Shown here piece after piece: positions 1 through 10,024 of a DNA stretch of 64,000 bases. Position 1 is the stretch's first letter. Each line of letters starts with the position of its first letter. Source of the DNA: an uncultured Candidatus Saccharibacteria bacterium (lineage in GTDB: Bacteria; Patescibacteriota; Saccharimonadia; Saccharimonadales; Saccharimonadaceae); NCBI GenBank assembly GCA_963456275.1, contig CAUOLJ010000003.1:201-64200 (forward strand), given 5' to 3'. Under the pieces are notes generated by a model, which had not been told where the DNA came from, ran no database searches, and saw nothing but the letters and a program-made list of their open reading frames with translations. A program made the position numbers and the translations under genes.

Positions 1-390
1 AAAAAATATGACATAGGCCCGCCAGATGCTTTGGAGATTCTTGAACTGATTAATTATGCTCGTAGTAAAGAAAATCTGAAGCCGTTAAAAATGTACGAGC
101 CGCTTAACCGAACAGCGCAGTGGATGGCGAATGACATGAAAGAGAATAATTATTTTAGCCATTATAAACCAGGCACAACTATTCCGCACGGACTGCTTAA
201 AGCGAGGGCTGTCTGCAACGCGCCAGCCGAGAATCTGGTGCAAACTTCGCCACCAGATCTGCACACTAGCCGCGTGGCATTCAACGCCTGGATGCAATCG
301 CCGCCGCACAGGCAATCCATCATGTCGAGCACCTACACGCTAACCGGATTTGGCATTGCCGGCAATAAGATTGTGGAGCATTTTTGTTGA
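1..390 (+). CDS. CAP/SCP-domain protein, C-terminal part (begins before window)
   Basis: Frame open from base 1; motifs LINxxR, AQxxAxDM..YFSH, AENL, WMxSPxHR, GFGI. Confidence 0.85.
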   Translation, partial: KKYDIGPPDALEILELINYARSKENLKPLKMYEPLNRTAQWMANDMKENNYFSHYKPGTTIPHGLLKARAVCNAPAENLVQTSPPDLHTSRVAFNAWMQSPPHRQSIMSSTYTLTGFGIAGNKIVEHFC

Positions 391-556
391 GTGTGTGTTT
401 AAACTGCCCGTCTTATAGCCATTCTCGCCGCCATTGGTATTCTATGAAAACTGCGCGGATAAATCTGATGTAGGGAGGCGATATCCTGCTAATACCTCAT
501 GATTTAAGTATGAACAAGATGGGTGGTTTGGATAAATCGGATGAAGGCTAAATACT

Positions 557-2017
557 TTACAATATAACATTACTCCACTCAAACATACTCCTGCCTAAGT
601 CTTCTCTATTAGTGATTCCAGCGCGAGAAAATACGTGCAGCAAATTTTGATTACTACATGACATAAATAAGTCGTCATAGTTACGAGAAATATTATGCCA
701 TATCCTGTCCTTAGTTTCTAAATAATCACTATTGATAATCTTGCATATCATACATAGAAAATCTTTATCCTTAAGTTTTTCTATAAACTCTGGTATATAT
801 CGTTCCCATGAAGGACCTAGTAGAATTCCTAATAACCACGGAAATTTTCCAAACATTAGATACTGTATGATATTGCCATCAAGGTATGTCTGCAGGAGGC
901 TTGGATTGTCAGCAAAACGCTCTTGCAGGAGTTGAGTTGTCGGGAGTGTAAGGTTCGCATCTTTTAATTTTTTATAGTGATCTAATACATGTTCAGGATA
1001 GTTTATTGTCGTAATATTTTCCAGATCTATATTATTAGCGATCGGGAGGAGACTACTTGGATTAATTAGTCTTATTTTTGCTATTGTTGGCAGTATGGTC
1101 CATGACTTGCTATCAACGATAGAGCCAACGATTAAGGATATTATTTCGTTGATAATCAAAGAATAGTACTCGATTGAAATTTCATGAGATATACTAGTAT
1201 TTTTAGAAATTTCAGCGTAGTGATCTAGAATAATTTGAATTGATTTGTATGCCTGTTCTAGTATATCCGCTCTTTCGTATTCAGCGGCCTTTTCAAGAAT
1301 TTCATGTAGCTCAATAGCTATGTCTTTAGTAGCACAATACGCATTATATACATTTGCTGTGTATTCCTCCGCTGCTACGCCTTCGTTAAATACACCAGGT
1401 GATAAGTCTAAGTATTGCTCATAGGTGTTTGCAAAATAATCTCTTATAGTTTTCTTTGCTGGCTTTCCGTTTTCAATTGCGCGAATAAGACTATCTTTAT
1501 AGGATTGAGTTTTGTTAATTTTTTCTTCGTTTGCCAACGAATCCAGGTGTGCTACGATAGCCTCCTTTAGGCTTCTCTTTAGTAATATAGCTTTATTATC
1601 TTTTTTTATAGAAAACCCTATCGTTCTTTGATGGGCAATATCAAATGGCAGTTCTTCCATTCTACCCAGATCAATATTTGCAACTTGGATAACCTTCTCC
1701 TCTGTGTGCTTACCAATTGCATATCCAAGTTCAAACATCACGTTTTGATTAACGATACCTTTTCCAGACTTGCCTCTGTCAATAATGGATACGTCTGCAA
1801 GAAAAATGCCGCAATTATTAATCTTTTCCTTGATGGTGGCTCCTATGTTAACGGCTCCTACCGCACCTTTCGTATCCTTATCTAATTCGACTCTTGGTGA
1901 CTCTTCTAATGCAGGAGTGTCGGAGATTTCTTTAATAACATCTAGCAGGGTTTTTTCGATATGACGTCGTGTTTTCGGGTGGTTAGACTGCCATGAATAA
2001 AATACTTTTCTTTTCAT
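557..2017 (-). CDS. TIR-like / nucleoside-deoxyribosyltransferase-like nucleotide-binding domain protein, probable defence gene
   Basis: N-terminal KVFYSWQS...IFLADVS...NQNVMFELGYAIG...LPFDI motifs; long divergent C-terminus; AT-rich. Confidence 0.7.
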   Translation of the reverse strand: MKRKVFYSWQSNHPKTRRHIEKTLLDVIKEISDTPALEESPRVELDKDTKGAVGAVNIGATIKEKINNCGIFLADVSIIDRGKSGKGIVNQNVMFELGYAIGKHTEEKVIQVANIDLGRMEELPFDIAHQRTIGFSIKKDNKAILLKRSLKEAIVAHLDSLANEEKINKTQSYKDSLIRAIENGKPAKKTIRDYFANTYEQYLDLSPGVFNEGVAAEEYTANVYNAYCATKDIAIELHEILEKAAEYERADILEQAYKSIQIILDHYAEISKNTSISHEISIEYYSLIINEIISLIVGSIVDSKSWTILPTIAKIRLINPSSLLPIANNIDLENITTINYPEHVLDHYKKLKDANLTLPTTQLLQERFADNPSLLQTYLDGNIIQYLMFGKFPWLLGILLGPSWERYIPEFIEKLKDKDFLCMICKIINSDYLETKDRIWHNISRNYDDLFMSCSNQNLLHVFSRAGITNREDLGRSMFEWSNVIL

Positions 2018-2084
2018 AATATTCCTCTAGTTTAGTATATTACATTTCAGGTTTGAATAAGGGTTGCAAAATTAGTACATTAAT

Positions 2085-2111
2085 AAAACAAAAAGACGCA
2101 CCAATAGCGTC
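2085..2111 (-). terminator. Probable intrinsic terminator downstream of the RT operon
   Basis: Minus strand GACGC-TATTGGT-GCGTC followed by TTTTGTTTT. Confidence 0.5.
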
Positions 2112-2120
2112 CTTATCCTA

Positions 2121-2185
2121 ATTGGTGGTAATTTACGCCAAAGCTCGAACCCATTTCGAGCTTAAAAGCTGAGCCATGTAGGCTC
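2121..2185 (+). repeat. 65-bp inverted repeat, left copy (partner 5273-5337)
   Basis: Reverse complement matches 5273-5337 at 58/65 positions by hand alignment. Confidence 0.9.
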
Positions 2186-2392
2186 AGCCCCAACGCCTGT
2201 GCCAGCAAAGCTGGCATGCGTCCAGTCAGAAAAACCGCTCCTTGAATTATCTTTTTGAAATTTCCCCGCCTTATTTTTCTCTTTAGTTGAAAGGGTCGGA
2301 TTTTTTCTGTCGGTCCGCCCACCGAAATCGGTGGAGGCGTTGTGGCTTCGCTCGGGCGGCAGAACCGCCACATCTTTGCAAGCAAGGCGTTC

Positions 2393-3394
2393 CTAACGCT
2401 CAACATATTCTTTATAGCGCAAAGTCGATTTTCGTTTTTTACGTATCGTGGTATTTCTCCTTCGGGACTCCTTATACCTATGCGTCAAGTTGGCTAACTT
2501 CCATCGAGTTTTCGTACCGAGTGTTAATGAGTTTCTATTCATCTGTAATCCCAGATGCTCAAAACCTCGCTTTCCTTGATAAATTCCATCTATGTCGTAT
2601 TCGTCGCCGGAATGGTATATGATTTTGGTTTTTGCGTCATTGAGCGGCAGCTTCTGATTTTTGTCGCTCTCAAGAATAGTCTTGATTTTTGGATAAAGCT
2701 TCATCATATCCTCTTTGGTGATTCCACTTGCCGTAATAGCAATATCATCAACGTAAATAGCAATACGAGGATCTTTGCCTTGTAGCTCCTTTTTCACAAG
2801 TCGCTCGAGCCTGAGGAATGTATCGAGATTACACCATACCGCCAGGCGAGACGAAGTTGAAAACCCGCGGGCGATTGTCTTATAAGTTCCGGGGTTATCT
2901 TTCGCACCAATTGGCACACAACAAAGGTCGGCCAGCAATCTTGCACCTCTTTGCCCACATTGACCCTTGGCTAAAAAGAAGCTATAGACACGTTCATATT
3001 TAATTTGCTCAAAAAACCGTGAAACATCCAGCTTGAGGATAATTCGCTTCCGCTTTACTCCGAGCAGGTGTGTTACTGCGACTTTATGGTTCCGTCCGCT
3101 CACGCCTCCGAATACGAACGTTGGAATAAGTGAGTCATGGGGAGCTAAAACTTTTACATTAATAAGCTTGAGTAATTTTCCCAGGTCGGTGCGCGATGCG
3201 TCGCGCACCCATTTACCTTTTTCGGGTTGCGATTGTGTGGGATGGTCAGTCCAGTAGTTGTCGTAGTTCATCTTAACGTCGCTTACCAGTCTTGCCATAT
3301 CCTCAACTGAATCTCGCTTATCACTTAAACGTTTCGCAAGCTCTCGCTTGCTCCGAATGGCGATTTTAGGATAGTTATGTTGGTTATTTTTCAT
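2393..3394 (-). CDS. Reverse transcriptase, retron-like (333 aa)
   Basis: LKLDVSRFF (RT3), ARGFSTSS (RT4-like), IYVDDIAIT (catalytic YxDD), HLGL; RT-only size, no maturase or endonuclease domain. Confidence 0.92.
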   Translation of the reverse strand: MKNNQHNYPKIAIRSKRELAKRLSDKRDSVEDMARLVSDVKMNYDNYWTDHPTQSQPEKGKWVRDASRTDLGKLLKLINVKVLAPHDSLIPTFVFGGVSGRNHKVAVTHLLGVKRKRIILKLDVSRFFEQIKYERVYSFFLAKGQCGQRGARLLADLCCVPIGAKDNPGTYKTIARGFSTSSRLAVWCNLDTFLRLERLVKKELQGKDPRIAIYVDDIAITASGITKEDMMKLYPKIKTILESDKNQKLPLNDAKTKIIYHSGDEYDIDGIYQGKRGFEHLGLQMNRNSLTLGTKTRWKLANLTHRYKESRRRNTTIRKKRKSTLRYKEYVER

Positions 3395-3710
3395 TGCGCC
3401 TTAATAACTTTGCTCGTTCTTTGATGAGATGATTTTGTAACTTGGTACCCCAACCTATAAATTGTTTTTCAATAACAGATAGTTTTTTACCGTTTTCGAC
3501 ATTCTCTCCATACAAAAAAGGAGTTATCGAGGCCGGGTGTACTTTTAAGCCATCAGCAAGCTTCAAAATTAGCTTTTTTGACACCTCTTTTTGTCCACTT
3601 TCGACCATAGCAATCAAAACCGGCGACACATCTATGGCCTTAGCAAGCTCGGTCTGCGTTAAACCAGCTTCGTTGCGTATCTTTTTGATTAGTTCTGGGA
3701 ATGAATACAT
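3384..3710 (-). CDS. XRE/Cro-family HTH protein, overlapping the RT start
   Basis: IKKIRNEAGLTQTELAKAIDVSPVLIAMVESG; 11-nt overlap with RT. Confidence 0.92.
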   Translation of the reverse strand: MYSFPELIKKIRNEAGLTQTELAKAIDVSPVLIAMVESGQKEVSKKLILKLADGLKVHPASITPFLYGENVENGKKLSVIEKQFIGWGTKLQNHLIKERAKLLRRNEK

Positions 3711-3729
3711 TGTTTTACCTTCATAACGA

Positions 3730-3897
3730 CTACAAGCCGGAGGTAATTTGACTTAAATCATGTCGCGGATAATTCTGACTATTTGTAAAATAATCTTCAT
3801 TATCCGCAAGACCTTGGTAAAAGTCTTCATTATTACCCTCCGGCTTGCGATACGGATGCCACAGTTTAGTTGGTAAAGAAATAAGTTGCTTTTCCAT
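3730..3897 (-). CDS. Unannotated 55-aa ORF (MEKQLISLPTKLWHPY...ITSGL) enclosing the peptide ORF in another frame
   Basis: AAAGGAAGG Shine-Dalgarno at 3910-3902, ATG 3897, TAG 3732-3730. Confidence 0.5.
   Translation of the reverse strand: MEKQLISLPTKLWHPYRKPEGNNEDFYQGLADNEDYFTNSQNYPRHDLSQITSGL
3753..3830 (-). CDS. Unannotated 25-aa cationic amphipathic peptide MKTFTKVLRIMKIILQIVRIIRDMI, candidate toxin
   Basis: GGAGG SD at 3841-3837, ATG 3830, TAA 3755-3753; SD paired with CCTCC at 3743-3739. Confidence 0.65.
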   Translation of the reverse strand: MKTFTKVLRIMKIILQIVRIIRDMI

Positions 3898-3914
3898 ATG
3901 GCCTTCCTTTCTAA

Positions 3915-4217
3915 CAAGCTAGATTAAAATATTTAGTTAGTAAAAGTTGGACAATCTTACTCTCGGGGCTATCGTTTCGATTGGTATAGACATCCGGTAA
4001 TACCCTAGTCGGCAAGATATAAATCTCGTAGCCCCGATTTGGATAGTCCCTGTGCTGGAAGCATTGCTTCAAGCCACGTAACATGTACAACGCGCGGAAT
4101 ACCGACCCGTGGTACAAGTCCTCACTCTGAATGGAATGGGTCAAATGCGTTTTATAGCATCTCAATCTATCGATTTGACAGCTTTATCGCTAAACTGATT
4201 TTTAACTTACTAGCCTG
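3915..4217 (-). ncRNA. Candidate RT-associated ncRNA (msr/msd-like)
   Basis: Ends pair (CAGGCUAG 4217-4210 with CUAGCUUG 3922-3915, plus UUAAAA/UUUUAA and UUUAG/CUAAA); internal stems 3963-3971/4029-4037, 4058-4070, 4140-4146/4173-4179. Confidence 0.6.
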
Positions 4218-4222
4218 CTACC

Positions 4223-4252
4223 AGTATATACAAAACGTATAAGTCCTGTCAA
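4223..4252 (-). promoter_or_regulatory. Sigma70 promoter of the RT operon
   Basis: TTGACA (4252-4247), 18-nt spacer, TATACT (4228-4223); predicted start about 4217. Confidence 0.7.
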
Positions 4253-4267
4253 GACTTTGGTTCACCC

Positions 4268-5157
4268 AACTAACCTGGAACAGCCATAGCAAACCGTAGG
4301 AATGCTATTGGGCTGGCGAACAGTTCTGGCTGGTTAGCTCTTGCCATCCATTCTCGGCAAAGAGAGTCTAGCTGTCTCGTCAGGATTCTTCCTCCGAACA
4401 GCTTCCGAGCATGCCGCTTCGTCACGCTCCAGATATTCTCTCCTTGGTTGGTACCGGCAAAGCACTCTTTGCTATGATTCCAGCTCTCATGGGCGTAGCC
4501 AAGTAGTTCTAGCTCGTCATACGCCCACCATTTGTCGCTTGCCACTAGGCTGCCTGCTACGATGTAGTCCTGAACAAATTGTTCAAGCGGTTGTCTATCC
4601 CGGCTGTCGGTAATGCGTAGGGCAATGCGCCCAGTCGCAGTGTCTTTAGCGCCAACTACGATGCGCTGAGGCTGTTTGGATCGCCTCTTGCCAAAGTAGC
4701 TTTCATCTACTTGCACCACACCCTCCAATATAGCGGTGAGCTTGCTGCTGTCAGGCAGTTGCTTGCGAAATCGGGCAAACCAGCGCCGAACAGTAGTATA
4801 GCTTACGCCAGCTAATAGATATGCCTGCCGTTTCTGTTGAGCGTTTTGTTTGCCAACAGTAGAGCAGGATGAACAGCTGCCGAGAACTTAGCTTCATGCC
4901 GTATAGCCAGCTAGCCTGGTAGCTGGTTGGACGATGCTTCTTGCGACAGAACTTGCACCATAGATATCTGTTGCAATAGCTCTCCTGAAGACTTGTGCGG
5001 CAGCGAGGACACAATACCTCATCGCCGAAAGCCAATTTGTTAAGGATCTGCCAATATTTCTTGTTACTGGCAAACTTTGGTATGGTAGACATTAGGAACA
5101 CCTCCTTTTACTTAGTTGCTATTCACTCCTAAGTTTACGGGATGTTCTGGTTTAGTT
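4268..5157 (-). mobile_element. IS1595-family insertion sequence
   Basis: Zn-ribbon plus ISXO2-type DDE transposase; imperfect terminal inverted repeats 4268-4285 and 5140-5157 (14/18). Confidence 0.8.
4270..5092 (-). pseudogene. IS1595 transposase, frameshifted
   Basis: CPRC..CKFC in the 5' frame, VQVDESYFG..SDKWWAY..H in the 3' frame; frames joined by removing a TGCC duplication at 4822-4829. Confidence 0.85.
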
Positions 5158-5272
5158 TAATGGACCTGCGAGACTTAGCGTTGCATTTATTCATGATGAT
5201 ATCTACGACGATAAGATATTCCAGTCTTGGCGGTAGACCTTGGTGGTAAAGTAGTTTTAGTTTGAGAGCGCG

Positions 5273-5337
5273 GAGCCTGTACAGCTCAGCTTTTACGCTT
5301 GAAATGGGTTCGAGCTTTGGCGTATATTACCACCAAT
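5273..5337 (-). repeat. 65-bp inverted repeat, right copy (partner 2121-2185)
   Basis: 58/65 identity to the reverse complement of 2121-2185. Confidence 0.9.
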
Positions 5338-5629
5338 AGAACTAAAACGGTCGCCCATTTGGGCGACGAAATATCAGCAATTTTGTATTGGTGCGGAATT
5401 ACAGAACCTACTCAAACTTTTTGAATACATTATGGATTACCCTGGTCCAGCTCCAGCAATAAAAAGACGTACAGCGCAGCATAAACAAACGCTATCAATT
5501 ATTTATTAGTAGCAATCTGTTGTGATATCAGAAGATAGTTTACAGGGGGTTGTTACTCTTTAATACGTAGAAATGTCATTCCGCTATGTAAATGGTAAAT
5601 TTTTGGGTGCAAAGTTGCCAATACTTTTT

Positions 5630-5800
5630 TTAAGCGTGCCAATAATGATTAGGGCTAATTGAGTAGTATAGAATTGTAAAGAAACCAACGCCAACCAGGC
5701 ATAGTAAGATGTGTTTTATAATACTATGTCCCTTTTGCTCTCGTACATAGTTAAAATTTTCTTGTTTTGTGTTTCCTGATGATTGTTGATGGTTGTTCAT
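5630..5800 (-). CDS. Unannotated 56-aa small membrane protein (MNNHQQSSG...HILLCLVGVGFFTILYYSISPNHYWHA)
   Basis: GGAGG SD, ATG 5800, TAA 5632-5630; one hydrophobic segment. Confidence 0.7.
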   Translation of the reverse strand: MNNHQQSSGNTKQENFNYVREQKGHSIIKHILLCLVGVGFFTILYYSISPNHYWHA

Positions 5801-5823
5801 AATACCTCCATTATTTAATTATT

Positions 5824-5941
5824 AAAAAAGGACAGCCACTGCTGGCTGTCTAGACCCACAACGAGAAGTTTTATCCCTATTGCTTTTAGCAAATGGCTGC
5901 CCATTTTCGGGATAAAATGAGCCCTGTTGTGAATCTAGACA
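5824..5941 (-). ncRNA. Structured leader or sRNA with overlapping intrinsic terminator
   Basis: Nested stems 5847-5854/5934-5941, 5857-5862/5926-5931, 5869-5877/5909-5917, 5880-5884/5888-5892; terminator 5831-5850 plus T6; extended -10 TGCTATAAT at 5956-5948. Confidence 0.6.
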
Positions 5942-6361
5942 TTATCTATTATAGCATTTTGATGTAAAATTTGAATTTCTGATATAATAGGTAATGTAAT
6001 TAATAAAATAACCGCATTCTAGTGTGGCTACATAGCGGAGACGGACCGCGTAAAAAACGGGTAGCACATTTACACATTAGAATAAGCATACGAGAACAGC
6101 TCGGTAAAAATGGGGCTTTTAGCGGACTAACTGAAGTAACTGCTTCAAGGAGTCTCGTATGTCCCCTTCATCTAACCGAAAAGTTTTCATCGATGACAGT
6201 ATATTAAAGTTGCTCAATGTATTGTTTAAATATAGCGACAAGCACAATGAAAAAATAAACACCACATCAAATAGACAGCGCTACATAATCAATAGAGGAG
6301 TAAAAATCCTTTTATAGTTCCCTATAGCCTAAATTAGCTCTAACTATAGGTAGGGGCTATA

Positions 6362-8026
6362 ATGGGAATTATGCAGAATAATAATGATTCTATAAGTGTA
6401 AAATTACTATTAGATAAACTTACGGGCGGTGGTCCTGAAAGCAGTGAGGACTCGCTTAAGCCCGTACGCTATGGGTTGTACGCCCGTAAGTCTACTACAA
6501 GCGAAGATAGACAGGCTTCATCAATAGAAGACCAGATAAAGGAGTGCGTAGATAAGGTTATTACACCAAACGGCTTAAATGTCAAAAAGATATACAAGGA
6601 AAGCTTTTCTGCTAAAATTGCAGATATACGTGATGAATTTAATAAACTTATAGATGATATTGAAAACGGAAGGATAGACGGCTTGATAGCTTGGCATCCT
6701 GACCGCCTATCACGAAATATGAAAGAGGCGGGTGTTATTATCGACCTGGTGGATAGGGGCTTAATTAAGGACCTAAGATTTGCAACATTTACATTTGAAA
6801 ATAATCCGGCGGGTAAAATGCTGCTCGGCATTACGTTTGTGATGGCTAAACAATATTCTGAACATCTCTCCGAATCGGTGGACCGTGGCAATAAAAGAGC
6901 CATAGAAGACGCTGAGTTTATCGGTAAGTTCAAGCATGGCTACATACTAGACTCAAATCGTTTTTTCCAACCTGACCCGAAGAATTTTACAAAGGTTAAA
7001 CATATATTTGAATTAGCTCTAGACGGTAAATCCCAGAAAGACATTAGAGAATGGATTAATAGACAAAATTATACTGTTCAAAAGCGTGCAGGAGGTCCTT
7101 ACCAAAATCATGATTGGTCCAAAGATGATATTTCAAAGACTCTTAAAGACCCCTTTTATGCTGGTATTTTAAAATGGGGCAAGCATTACAAAAATTTATT
7201 AGAAGAGTATGATTTTCAGAGTGCAATTACTGTTGATGAATATCTAAAAATAAATAAGATTGATAGCTTAGATTCCTCTAAAGTTTATGCTATCAACAAG
7301 CCAAAAGGTGGTGAAATATTTGCGAATTTATTTCGGGGTGGAGTCGTTTGTGGGGCTTGCAATGAGCCCATGACTTCAATGGTTACAAATAAGCGGAATA
7401 AGGTAACGGGCGAAAAATACGATTATAGATATTACTATAAGTGTGAAAACGGACACTGTAATTTCAACGGAAAATCGATTCGCGCAAAAAGTATTATTGA
7501 TACGGCTGAGGCATTTTTTAATAGTTACTTATTCATTAATAAAAGTAATTATTTGGTAATAAAAGAAAGTGCTGAAAAATCTATAAAATGCAAAGGGGCT
7601 AATCTTGCTAGCGAGATAGCTAGCTTAAAACGAAAAATAGCACTTAAAAAGCAACATTATGAACAGACAAAGGCTCTCATACTAGAGAATCCAGAACTAA
7701 AGGACTATTACAATCTTGGCGAATTTCTTGATGAACAAAAGGAATTAGAACAACGTTATGAACTGGTGGCTAATCAAAAACGCTTACTAAAGGATTCGTT
7801 GATTACATTTGATGAATATCTCAAACTTTTTAAATCCCTCCCTGTTATTTTTGAAAAACTTGATGATATGAATGAGTTGAACCAACTACTAAAAATATTC
7901 TTCTCTAACTTCATAATTGAACCCATTAAAAAAGACACTTTTAAGGGGTCAAAAGTATCCTATAAACTAAATGAACCCTGGAAAGGGTTCATTGAATCAA
8001 ATGATTTCGTTTGTGGTGCGGGTTAG
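6362..8026 (+). CDS. Large serine recombinase (resolvase, recombinase and Zn-ribbon domains)
   Basis: YARKST catalytic Ser, DRLSRN, CGAC...YYKC; stop codon lies inside the tRNA 3' end. Confidence 0.95.
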   Translation: MGIMQNNNDSISVKLLLDKLTGGGPESSEDSLKPVRYGLYARKSTTSEDRQASSIEDQIKECVDKVITPNGLNVKKIYKESFSAKIADIRDEFNKLIDDIENGRIDGLIAWHPDRLSRNMKEAGVIIDLVDRGLIKDLRFATFTFENNPAGKMLLGITFVMAKQYSEHLSESVDRGNKRAIEDAEFIGKFKHGYILDSNRFFQPDPKNFTKVKHIFELALDGKSQKDIREWINRQNYTVQKRAGGPYQNHDWSKDDISKTLKDPFYAGILKWGKHYKNLLEEYDFQSAITVDEYLKINKIDSLDSSKVYAINKPKGGEIFANLFRGGVVCGACNEPMTSMVTNKRNKVTGEKYDYRYYYKCENGHCNFNGKSIRAKSIIDTAEAFFNSYLFINKSNYLVIKESAEKSIKCKGANLASEIASLKRKIALKKQHYEQTKALILENPELKDYYNLGEFLDEQKELEQRYELVANQKRLLKDSLITFDEYLKLFKSLPVIFEKLDDMNELNQLLKIFFSNFIIEPIKKDTFKGSKVSYKLNEPWKGFIESNDFVCGAG

Positions 8027-8089
8027 GAGACTCTAACTCCTGGCCTCTTCCATGGCAAGGAAGCGCTCTAACAACTGAGCTAAACCCGC
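8014..8089 (-). tRNA. tRNA-Gly(GCC)
   Basis: 76-nt cloverleaf GCGGGTTTAGCTCAG...CTTCC TTGCCAT GGAAG...CCCGCACCA. Confidence 0.95.
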
Positions 8090-8222
8090 ATAATGTTCGC
8101 TGCGTATCTCGCTGGCAAATCGTCATAATTTTGCGAACTCGCCTATGATGTGCGATACAACAGCCAATCTTTCGATTACATAGTAAGTATAGCAAACAAA
8201 ACCGCTCATTTCAATAATCTTC

Positions 8223-9014
8223 TCACCAATTTCTCTTCGTATGATCTGGCGTGGCGTCTTTGTAATCTTCTAGGTGCTGGTTTCTTTCCTGGGATTTACG
8301 CTGTTCATTGTAGGCGTCGATGAATCGCTTGTCCAGCTCTTTGAGTTTGCTATCGGTGCTGCCAGTGTCAACTTTTTCTTTATCGTCAGGTTTGGTGACT
8401 GAAATATCTTGGTCGCCGTTTCTGAGCTGTTTTATCTGCGCCAACTTTTGTCGGATTCGCTGCTCAATAACGATTGCCGTTTTGCCGTCGTCATTGTTCG
8501 CGTCGACTGTTTGGCTGGCAAATTGCACGCCGCAACTATCCTCGCCGTCGTGCAGTACGGCGTTTGCTTCGTCGTAGCGGATGATTGCTCGGTCGTAGCG
8601 TTTTTCGCTGGCGAGGGCGTCTGCTTGCGCTTCAATTGATAGCGCCAAGTTGATGCGGACAGGGCATTCGTGAGTTTTCGGCGCTTTTTGTAAGGCTTGG
8701 CGGAATTGTTTTTCTGCCGAGTCGTAGCGGGCTTGCTTATATAGAGCATTCCCGTCGTTAAAAAATACTTTATAAGATTCAAACAAATTCACGGCATAAA
8801 CTGGCGATAAGCGGAAAGAAGCCTGGCTGTTGTCGCCGTCTTTATAGGCGGTATGCGCTGCTAGCGACAGCAGAGGAAAACTCGTCAATTTAATAGCAAT
8901 CAGCAGAATCACCGCGCAAGCAGGGAATGAATAACGGAGCAGTTTCCGGCGTTTTTCTCGGCGGATTTTTTCAAAATCTAGTTTTTTCAGGTCAAATGGA
9001 CGATTCTTGTTCAC
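8223..9014 (-). CDS. TPR-containing membrane protein (Bat-like operon)
   Basis: TM segment, FNDGNALY..A...F..AL TPR pattern. Confidence 0.7.
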   Translation of the reverse strand: MNKNRPFDLKKLDFEKIRREKRRKLLRYSFPACAVILLIAIKLTSFPLLSLAAHTAYKDGDNSQASFRLSPVYAVNLFESYKVFFNDGNALYKQARYDSAEKQFRQALQKAPKTHECPVRINLALSIEAQADALASEKRYDRAIIRYDEANAVLHDGEDSCGVQFASQTVDANNDDGKTAIVIEQRIRQKLAQIKQLRNGDQDISVTKPDDKEKVDTGSTDSKLKELDKRFIDAYNEQRKSQERNQHLEDYKDATPDHTKRNW

Positions 9015-10024
9015 GGCTGTTTCTCCTCTGGCGGTGTTATGTTTTGCAGTTTGCGCAAAGGCAAATAGACGGTTCTGATTTCAAAGGCCAGCAGAATAGC
9101 AGCCGCAAATATTGCTATCCAATATATATCGTTGTAGCCGTCGAACGAGCGGCTGCTATTGACAGCTTTGTCGACGGAACCGTTCTTGACGACAGTTTCA
9201 ATAGAATCTGGAGTTTGCCGGTGTGTGTACGGCAGTCCTGTTTGACTGGCAATGTTTTTAAGGTTTGTCTCGTCGATTTTTGATACGGCATATTTCAAAT
9301 CTGGCCCGCGCAAATAAAAACCGTCAAAGCCGTCGCTGTAACTTGGCGTTTTTATTTTTCCGCCGTCGGTAGTGCCGTAACCCATGATTGCGCCGCCGCC
9401 CAGCAGGGGCTTTAAGCTGGCGAATGACTTTGGCGAGGCGTCGCTGGTTTGTTCGCCGTCGCCCAGGTAAAATAGCAGCGAGGTGCGCTCGGGATTTTTA
9501 TGCTTGGTGCGAGTAATCTCCGAGGCGATGGTGTCAATCGGTGTATCAATTGAGCTGCCCATGGCATAGCTTTCGCTGATGATATTTACCGTGTCAACTG
9601 CCGATTCAAACATCCTGACGTCTGTCGATAACGGCGAATCAACGAAAGCTTTATTGTTGAAAGTTATTAGGCTAAATCGCGCGCCAACCAGCTTTTTGGC
9701 AATTTCTTTGGCGTCGCGGCGCATGCCGTTGATTCGCGGCTGGCCGTTATCATAATCCTCGGCAGCAGAACTCATCGTTGTGTCCATGACAACATAAACA
9801 TCGACTAGCGGCGCGCCCCATTCTTTCACTTCGCCAGGAATAGCTGGGCGAAAACAAGCGGTAATGATAAGCAAGACAATACAGAACCGCCGCAGCCACG
9901 CTCGCCGGTTAGATATTGGTTTGGATAAAATCCTCCAGCCGGTAAAAATTGCAGCAACTACCAGAATTATCAGCAGCAGATACCATGGCAAAATCGGTTG
10001 CATTATCATATGCGAAGCCTCCAA
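9011..10024 (-). CDS. VWA-domain membrane protein
   Basis: DTTMSS MIDAS-like motif, GDGE. Confidence 0.85.
   Translation of the reverse strand: MEASHMIMQPILPWYLLLIILVVAAIFTGWRILSKPISNRRAWLRRFCIVLLIITACFRPAIPGEVKEWGAPLVDVYVVMDTTMSSAAEDYDNGQPRINGMRRDAKEIAKKLVGARFSLITFNNKAFVDSPLSTDVRMFESAVDTVNIISESYAMGSSIDTPIDTIASEITRTKHKNPERTSLLFYLGDGEQTSDASPKSFASLKPLLGGGAIMGYGTTDGGKIKTPSYSDGFDGFYLRGPDLKYAVSKIDETNLKNIASQTGLPYTHRQTPDSIETVVKNGSVDKAVNSSRSFDGYNDIYWIAIFAAAILLAFEIRTVYLPLRKLQNITPPEEKQP

Follow-up and report, generated by a model that had tools for sequence, protein, structure and literature searches.

A divergent type VI-like retron lineage of the Patescibacteria with a putative dual-frame small-ORF switch

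We describe a compact 1.9-kb module on the minus strand (positions 4258-2379) of a 64,000-nucleotide (nt) stretch of DNA from an uncultured Candidatus Saccharibacteria bacterium (contig CAUOLJ010000003.1), the whole stretch being called the window throughout. Along the minus strand a promoter is followed by a leader of about 320 nt, small open reading frames (ORFs), a gene for a helix-turn-helix (HTH) protein and a gene for a reverse transcriptase (RT). Comparison with related loci makes it very probable that the module is a type VI-family retron and that it represents a divergent lineage found throughout the Patescibacteria. As an explanation of the whole, we are inclined to favour a type VI-family retron whose small ORFs would form a dual-frame switch of the hok/mok kind.

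A first-pass annotation of the window had seen here a single minus-strand unit with a TTGACA/TATACT promoter and a folded leader, and an XRE-type HTH gene overlapping that of an RT of 333 amino acids (aa) with the motifs YVDD, ARGFSTSS and HLGL. All of its elements were found where it had placed them: the promoter site matches in 11 of 12 positions, the fold has a z-score of -6.6, the two genes overlap by 11 nt and the RT motifs are conserved in aligned relatives. It had also left a choice between a type VI-like retron and a new RT defence system. The first is supported by the best-scoring profile models (RT_VI and HTH_VI) and by the order of small protein (SP), HTH and RT; the second is not needed, the kind being already known, for type VI retrons were characterised in 2025-26 as Retron-Vpa2 and Retron-Sen3.

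The elements on which the argument turns are as follows (window coordinates, in the order of transcription).

4190..4197, minus strand: 5' arm of the long-range RNA helix P2, CAGTTTAG, close to the transcript's 5' end; partner 3862-3869
3730..3897, minus strand: frame A ORF, 55 codons and stop, ATG start; kept open, not conserved as a protein
3862..3869, minus strand: 3' arm of helix P2, CTAAACTG, in frame A, codons 10-12
3836..3848, minus strand: 5' arm of the long-range RNA helix P3, containing the GGAGG Shine-Dalgarno (SD) sequence of frame B, 6 nt (3836-3831) ahead of the ATG
3753..3830, minus strand: frame B ORF, 25 codons and stop, MKTFTKVLRIMKIILQIVRIIRDMI, ATG at 3830; proposed toxin
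3732..3744, minus strand: 3' arm of helix P3 (helix 7, 94% paired), the last frame A codons up to the TAG stop
3384..3710, minus strand: Cro/C1-type HTH protein, 108 aa (Pfam HTH_3, 2e-14; PADLOC HTH_VI, 1.4e-12); proposed antitoxin and repressor
2393..3394, minus strand: RT, 333 aa, YVDD at residues 214-217 (Pfam RVT_1, 8.3e-12; PADLOC RT_VI the best model)

Dual coding of the small-protein slot

Two overlapping frames recur in the small-ORF region of 78 unique upstream regions, frame A being frame B shifted by two bases, with B in the +1 frame of A. In the window, frame B is part of a 54-aa ORF with a TTG start (3753-3917); an internal ATG at 3830 opens the peptide, which runs from 3830 to 3756. 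The frame B peptide measures 21-31 aa and is an Arg/Ile/Leu-rich helix with the consensus ..LRIL.IILQI.RI..DL... Its ATG stands at a conserved place in 71 of the 78 loci, with GTG in two others; of 72 loci, 62 show a G-run or an SD core ahead of this start (53 an SD core). Frame A has 44-59 codons and begins with ATG in every locus, 55-85 nt ahead of the start of B. Between stops it extends over at least 45 codons in all 78 unique loci, compared with a median of 11 codons in the third frame. Within the part that belongs to A only, no stop occurs in frame A in any of 72 loci, as against 61 and 67 of the 72 in the other two frames.

The two frames evolve differently. In the overlap, the codon-position entropies of frame B are 1.18, 0.60 and 1.51, with T in 66% of its second positions. 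The ratio of non-synonymous to synonymous change (pN/pS), taken over 74 pairs at 3-35% divergence among 32 unique gap-free sequences, amounts to 0.36 in B, to 1.31 in A and to 0.82 in the third frame. Upstream, in the A-only part, pN/pS lies at 0.58-0.74 across all three frames, none of which is constrained as a protein. The mean column identity of frame A is 25%, and its predicted structure has a predicted local distance difference test (pLDDT) score of 57.7 and a predicted template modelling (pTM) score of 0.14, i.e. it models as unstructured. All the same, A is kept open far more often than B would bring about: if the B codons are resampled synonymously according to the codon usage of the respective locus, A stays open in 26% of trials on average, so that 19.6 of 76 loci are expected and 76 are observed. 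With the roles of the frames reversed, 29.9 are expected as against the 76 observed, and for 15 representatives below 70% HTH identity 4.3 are expected with A open and 15 observed; these nulls ignore RNA constraints and residual relatedness. The comparison of loci thus shows the small-protein slot to be dual-coded, with B evolving as a protein and A without protein-level constraint. On the same grounds frame B is probably the effector, a predicted toxin.

Frame B has no match in Pfam, and its best NCBIfam match, to a phenol-soluble-modulin model, lacks significance (E 0.06; 13 bits, the cut-off being 30); it fits no Hok, Fst or other toxin family of these two collections. For frame A, Pfam gives DUF1391 at E 0.19 and nothing else. 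Public protein collections contain the exact 55-aa sequence of frame A, labelled as unnamed or hypothetical protein, and lack the 25-aa B peptide. Likewise, among four loci looked up in a public protein collection, three A peptides were present (as hypothetical proteins) and no B peptide. The first-pass annotation had called both small ORFs unannotated, which is right for the 25-aa peptide but not wholly so for the 55-aa ORF; its suggestion that the effector escapes ordinary gene calling holds for frame B.

It would be simpler to regard the locus as an ordinary type VI retron in which the 55-aa frame A protein is the SP toxin and the B peptide is incidental. Frame A begins with ATG throughout the loci and its SD in the window is strong, it is open in all loci and reported by gene callers, and its 44-59 aa fit the published SPs of Vpa2 (55 aa) and Sen3 (79 aa) (bioRxiv 10.1101/2025.10.22.683967; 10.64898/2026.04.27.721009). 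We nevertheless consider this most improbable, given the pN/pS of A in the overlap and of about 0.7 in all three frames upstream, its low column identity and pLDDT, and its lack of a C-terminal hydrophobic core such as the published SPs have; it is B that bears the coding signature, starts at a conserved place and has the modelled interface with the HTH protein.

The HTH protein, the long-range helices and a proposed switch

At its end the HTH gene overlaps the RT gene by 11 nt, and at its beginning the stop of frame A lies 4-24 nt ahead of the HTH ATG in 71 of 72 loci. An SD core precedes the HTH start in just six of 72 loci. In a complex model of the HTH protein of locus L004 with its own 31-aa B peptide (handles of this form denote single loci of our comparison), the interface score ipSAE is 0.68, with 0.00 for the best control. 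This mark is reached by 116 of 157 solved complexes and by two of 215 mismatched pairs, counts that hold roughly for a model built, as here, on custom alignments. Between runs the contacts are in 100% agreement, with a pLDDT of at least 82 for the partner. In L004 numbering, the modelled contacts join residues 11-29 of B, including the near-invariant I22, I25 and D28, to residues 56-98 of the HTH protein, including the conserved G87, Q91 and L94; the surface concerned is the conserved C-terminal part. The B peptide is thus modelled to bind the C-terminal domain of the HTH protein.

Two long-range RNA helices covary across relatives. P2 joins the 5' end of the transcript to frame A; 89% of its cells are paired and six of its eight pairs show compensatory change (37 sequences). 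P3 is a perfect 11-nt inverted repeat in the window. Over 73 distinct sequences, 92.5% of its cells are paired and 12 of 13 pairs show compensatory change; none of 500 shuffles reaches as high, and slid controls are 28-53% paired. Frame A thus contains the whole of P3, 5' and 3' arm alike, as well as the 3' arm of P2, while its start lies within the domain closed by P2. P2, P3 and two internal stems, which are all 87-94% paired and carry compensatory changes, mark out a structured upstream RNA that is continuous with the proposed toxin ORF. A further helix, P1, which the fold of the single sequence places between the 5' end and the segment just ahead of the SD of A, was dropped, and helices 4 and 5 are similarly weak across relatives.

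These elements can be combined into a mechanism. One promoter would give a hybrid RNA of about 510 nt, made up of a structured non-coding part and the small-ORF part, and the transcript would run on into HTH and RT. Frame A would serve as a corridor for ribosomes in the manner of mok, its translation melting P2 and P3, and the melting of these helices would expose the start site of B. Ribosomes finishing A would end beside the SD-less start of the HTH gene, re-initiate there and pass on to the RT through the 11-nt overlap. Such coupling to HTH would be the reason why A is open to its very end. The HTH protein would bind and neutralise B through its C-terminal helices and repress the system. 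By analogy with Retron-Vpa2, phage-triggered msDNA (multicopy single-stranded DNA) synthesis from the leader could remodel the RNA in favour of the toxin, whereupon toxin production would kill or arrest the infected cell. That frame A acts by its translation and not by its product is the reading of the sequence data that we slightly prefer. More tentatively, and with the odds somewhat against it, we put forward the full proposal: the annotated small gene may be no effector but a sequence-free ribosome corridor, whose translation would open the helices, expose the toxin in the +1 frame and hand ribosomes on to the SD-less antitoxin and the RT, the hok/mok-style switch being controlled by reverse transcription of the leader.

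Kinship of the reverse transcriptase and comparison with known systems

Retron RTs are characterised, though not formally defined, by the PQG..TS block of domain 4 and the VTG of domain 7. The type VI RT clade corresponds to RT-Clade 3 of Mestre and is sister to types IV and V. In PADLOC, the RT of the window is matched best by RT_VI (3.5e-23, 80 bits), followed by RT_IV (52 bits). Weaker matches are to RT_V (40 bits), Drt3a (37 bits) and AbiA (18.5 bits). In the three other RTs of the clade that were compared (L024, L029, L028), RT_VI likewise comes first among the PADLOC models (63-96 bits). Retron types IV and V, DRT3 and the Abi RTs have the RVT_1 palm domain in common with it, and each of them scores lower than RT_VI; an overlapping upstream protein of the HTH_VI type, combined with a small ORF within a structured leader, is a defining feature of none of them. 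YVDD, ARGFSTSS and FEHLGL are present in the window and conserved in 21 aligned relatives, among which the RT is conserved, with YVDD intact, down to 54% identity.

The lineage is widespread. The RT has 360 relatives at E <= 1e-3, and for the comparison 31 genome loci and 80 metagenome loci were fetched. The hosts include Saccharibacteria, Paceibacterota, Wolfe-, Jorgensen-, Harrison-, Doudna-, Morani-, Uhr- and Taylorbacteria and others, and relatives occur in at least ten candidate phyla; matches to RT_VI were found in four of the 31 related genomes searched. The gene order of the window recurs across the Patescibacteria, the HTH gene adjoining the RT gene in 104 of 113 sources. Among the nine sources without it, five end at a contig border, one was matched spuriously as an RT, and the other three, L013, L028 and L031, have no whole HTH gene. 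In L028, from Saccharibacteria, the RT follows directly after overlapping A-like and B-like ORFs with no HTH match (L028:3284-4499), possibly an HTH-less variant. A second, different type VI-like element was met in a genome of the same genus (G016; L113:1309-2400): its RT is more canonical, reaching 192 bits with RT_VI and having VPQGSPTSM and SVTGVI, and it is preceded by a 41-aa ORF alone, with no HTH gene.

Two type VI retrons have been characterised in preprints. In Retron-Vpa2, the RT template and a toxic SP whose translation is repressed are united in a hybrid RNA, and HTH, RT and RNA form a complex (bioRxiv 10.1101/2025.10.22.683967). In Retron-Sen3, the HTH protein neutralises the SP toxin, long-range repeats flank the SP ORF, and the pair of HTH and SP needs neither RT nor ncRNA (non-coding RNA) in order to work. 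The same source notes that the catalogue of 2020 already held a type VI entry from the candidate phyla radiation (CPR), from Ca. Levybacteria, and that six type VI retrons, including the CPR one, gave no detectable single-stranded DNA (ssDNA) in E. coli (bioRxiv 10.64898/2026.04.27.721009). As far as these texts go, the module has much in common with them: the order of ncRNA, small ORF (toxic there, putatively so here), Cro/C1 HTH and RT, with HTH overlapping RT; one structured transcript that carries both a candidate RT template and the putative toxin ORF; a ribosome-binding site of the toxin, or here putative toxin, buried in helices, with long-range inverted repeats around its ORF; and a putative toxin with a hydrophobic helix, whose binding by the HTH protein is modelled here and was shown for Sen3.

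The differences lie mainly in the small ORFs. Unlike the type VI SP, the proposed toxin here has 21-31 aa, consists of the helix alone and lies in another frame than the ORF of 44-59 codons at the SP position, and that ORF is open yet unconstrained as a protein. Here, moreover, the HTH gene mostly lacks an SD and begins 4-24 nt after the stop of this ORF. The RT motifs are divergent, with 80 as against 329 bits for a canonical type VI RT, and the hosts are Patescibacteria. In five canonical type VI plasmid loci (L117, L120-L123), a single-frame ORF of 47-53 aa was found ahead of HTH in all five, about 50-200 nt upstream and unannotated, the public annotation having just HTH and RT; a second open frame was found in none of the five. 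These canonical small ORFs encode a hydrophilic or basic N-terminus and a C-terminal hydrophobic helix studded with Lys and Arg. The B peptide resembles only this helix, and in character only. From these comparisons it looks as if the N-terminal half of the canonical SPs were replaced here by a separate, unconstrained ORF.

The same canonical architecture, a hydrophilic N-terminus and a hydrophobic helix in one frame of 47-53 aa, would allow another arrangement, i.e. programmed +1 frameshifting that fuses the N-terminal 22 or so residues of A to the helix of B and yields a canonical-SP-like product of about 47-55 aa. B does lie in the +1 frame of A, and an internal G-rich, SD-like element stands ahead of the junction, reminiscent of the frameshift site of prfB. 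We regard this as unlikely. B has its own start codon at a fixed place (ATG in 71 of the 78 loci, GTG in two more), several loci carry stops in the B frame just upstream of the ATG (e.g. L004, L011, L017, L018, L021), no shared slippery motif was found on reading alignment A3, and in every locus A remains open for about 30 codons beyond the junction, for which frameshifting would have no need.

The nearest parallel to such a switch is hok/mok. There, translation of mok, and not its product, is needed for hok expression, long-range pairing hides ribosome-binding sites, and translation beyond the start of hok is not needed (PMC9841398). Going by this source, the module resembles hok/mok/sok in the small hydrophobic ORF of a toxin, putative here, nested in a longer overlapping leader ORF, in the long-range pairing of 5' and 3' segments that sequesters a ribosome-binding site and, if our proposal is right, in a leader ORF that matters by translation rather than product and in activation through remodelling of the RNA. 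Unlike in hok/mok/sok, the putative antitoxin here is a protein, the HTH, and an RT with a template RNA is attached; no antisense RNA is known, no specific search for an antisense promoter having been made; and the leader ORF is open to the very end and seems to feed a downstream gene without an SD. As the frame B peptide matches no Hok/Gef-family model of Pfam or NCBIfam, hok/mok is an analogy and not a membership.

Overlapping frames are not mentioned in the main texts of the Vpa2 and Sen3 preprints as far as accessible, and literature searches on retrons in Patescibacteria and on retrons with hok/mok, not all of them retron-specific, returned nothing on this lineage or on overlapping frames. 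A search with the Aeromonas RT for canonical type VI loci in viral contigs found none. Going by the searchable texts, the dual-frame small ORF, the covarying locks and the SD-less HTH appear to be an undescribed variant.

Several observations weigh against this reading of the locus, and they concern each of its parts. In the RT, the usual retron motifs are missing: the window and 20 relatives have ARGF(S/P/A)TS and (F/Y)E(H/L)LG in their place. The best NCBIfam model, retron_St85_RT, reaches 45 bits against a cut-off of 235, and where the RT and HTH of the canonical Aeromonas plasmid locus score 329 and 116 bits, the RT of the window scores just 80. From the distance to the canonical locus we conclude that the lineage is a divergent branch; with RT profile scores this low, however, membership of type VI follows from best-match logic and not from a tree. 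Regarding the small ORFs, an SD core precedes A in just 36 of 72 loci, and the coding region of B also forms hairpins, i.e. RNA constraints that lie outside the resampling nulls. The loci are related, so that counts across them overstate their independence. In two of them a frame is broken, L009 having a stop seven codons into B and L080 an A that ends about 12 codons early; these are possibly decaying copies or sequencing errors. Among the RNA helices, P1 is just 63% paired across relatives. The complex of HTH and B is a model only, and amphipathic helices dock easily, though all controls stayed at 0.00. The analogy with hok/mok leaves the openness of A to its end unexplained. Finally, msDNA, toxicity, neutralisation by HTH and phage defence are taken over from other type VI retrons.

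Leader RNA, genomic setting and significance

Five further features of the minus strand and its surroundings complete the description.

4223..4252, minus strand: sigma-70-like promoter with -35 TTGACA (4252-4247), an 18-nt spacer and -10 TATACT (4228-4223); 11 of 12 positions match
3898..4216, minus strand: non-coding part of the hybrid RNA and candidate retron ncRNA (from the fold, alignments and RNAalifold)
3963..4037, minus strand: conserved leader stem-loop with arms 4037-4029 and 3971-3963 and the near-invariant ATTACCGGA in the loop
2379..4258, minus strand: extent of the conserved module, from blastn of the window against L033, L035, L036 and L038, close relatives in other genomic contexts
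2121..2188, no strand assigned: 68-nt inverted repeat arm, partner 5270-5337, 88% complementary

A scan of 1900-4800 for promoters of this quality found four sites against 4.7 expected from shuffles, and a single such site is not significant. Of the related loci, 73 have at least 450 nt of upstream DNA, and 38 of these carry a promoter-like site scoring at least 10 of 12 at 275-430 nt upstream of the small ORF. The promoter is credible because of these comparable sites and because similarity to relatives sets in at 4258. The transcript would start near 4216.

The leader together with the small-ORF stretch (3711-4225) folds with a minimum free energy of -160.3 kcal/mol (z = -6.6), and none of 100 shuffles is as stable. 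RNAalifold gives 46 pairs, 19 of them with compensatory change. In the alignments, the ncRNA candidate consists of a conserved 5' segment, a hairpin, a central region of variable length and the conserved stem-loop. The hairpin and the stem-loop are 87-90% paired across relatives; for the stem-loop (helix 6) it is 90% of cells, with compensatory change in eight of nine pairs. The stretch 3911-4165 also contains an 84-aa ORF with a TTG start, which is interrupted by in-frame stops in the close relatives L035, L036 and L038; we therefore take it for leader RNA and not for a gene. Rfam found a single tRNA in positions 1-10000 of the window and no retron msr family.

Metatranscriptome contigs matching 2300-4400 were obtained in four of four runs (four studies). 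All are 186-365 nt long and lie within 3718-4205, in the leader and the small-ORF stretch, reaching neither HTH nor RT nor the DNA upstream of the -10 box, where missing cover is no evidence. Being 90-99% alike to the window they stem from close relatives, and they carry no information on level, ends or strand; they hint, if weakly, at a discrete leader RNA in these relatives. RNA-library contigs of two runs (X17, X18) terminate, and in a third run (X20) divergence sets in, a few bases at most from the start codon of frame B (window 3830-3834), which may be an assembly break at a hairpin-rich or variable region.

The source genome comprises 0.76 Mb in 23 contigs. Similarity of the window to L033, L035, L036 and L038 spans only the stretch from 4258 down to between 2413 and 2122, and we therefore delimit the module as running from promoter to RT. 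With L033 it stops at 2379, 14 nt beyond the RT stop. With L036 it extends to 2122, so that the roughly 200 nt between RT stop and repeat arm (2189-2392) are common to both. A terminator-like hairpin lies at 2114-2092, beyond the inverted-repeat arm. A gene for a TIR-like protein of 486 aa on the minus strand (557-2017) was considered as the effector and rejected: it accompanies the module in the same-context relatives L034 and L044 only and is absent 3' of the module in L033, L035, L036 and L038 (blastn). Its N-terminus matches PF10137 weakly (6e-5, 23.5 bits, under the cut-off), PADLOC gives PDC-S35 (1.3e-5), and it may be a separate defence gene.

The 68-nt inverted repeats (2121-2188, 5270-5337) bracket 3.1 kb that hold the retron module and a transposase of the IS1595/ISXO2 type split into two ORFs (4751-5101 and 4270-4728; domain PF12762, 5.9e-18). 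This unit looks like a transposon with the retron as cargo, and the repeats are context and not part of the retron. Farther off lies a large serine recombinase gene (6362-8089; Resolvase, Recombinase and Zn-ribbon domains), whose end falls in or beside a tRNA gene on the opposite strand (8017-8089); the two suggest an integrated island that includes the retron region.

Such a setting could also fit a locus that has lost retron function or never had it and makes no msDNA, in which B and HTH form an addiction pair stabilising the IS1595-like element or the island. Besides the common enclosure of module and transposase by the repeats, the atypical RT motifs would be in keeping with this, as would two statements of the Sen3 preprint given above, the want of detectable ssDNA from six type VI retrons in E. 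coli and the independence of the Sen3 HTH-SP pair from RT and ncRNA. There is little likelihood of it in our view, for the RT is strongly conserved with intact YVDD in the 21 aligned relatives, the leader keeps covarying stems far from the ORFs (helices 3 and 6), and in the relatives from other contexts the unit from promoter to RT moves without a transposase.

Type VI is the retron class in which reverse transcription controls the translation of a toxin, and how it does so is still debated between the two preprints of 2025-26. The lineage described here offers a natural dissection of the problem, with toxin helix, an ORF that would have to be translated and two locking helices separable by frame-specific silent mutations. 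It illustrates that sequence comparison alone can bring to light a peptide of 25 residues for which a protein antitoxin is modelled, and that catalogues built from called genes can name the wrong small protein as the effector. If our proposal is true, the corridor logic may have been overlooked in other type VI retrons with a gene-called 'SP'. For the ultra-small Patescibacteria, it suggests that retron-type systems, whose role in defence would follow from their kinship with type VI, are widespread and mobile.

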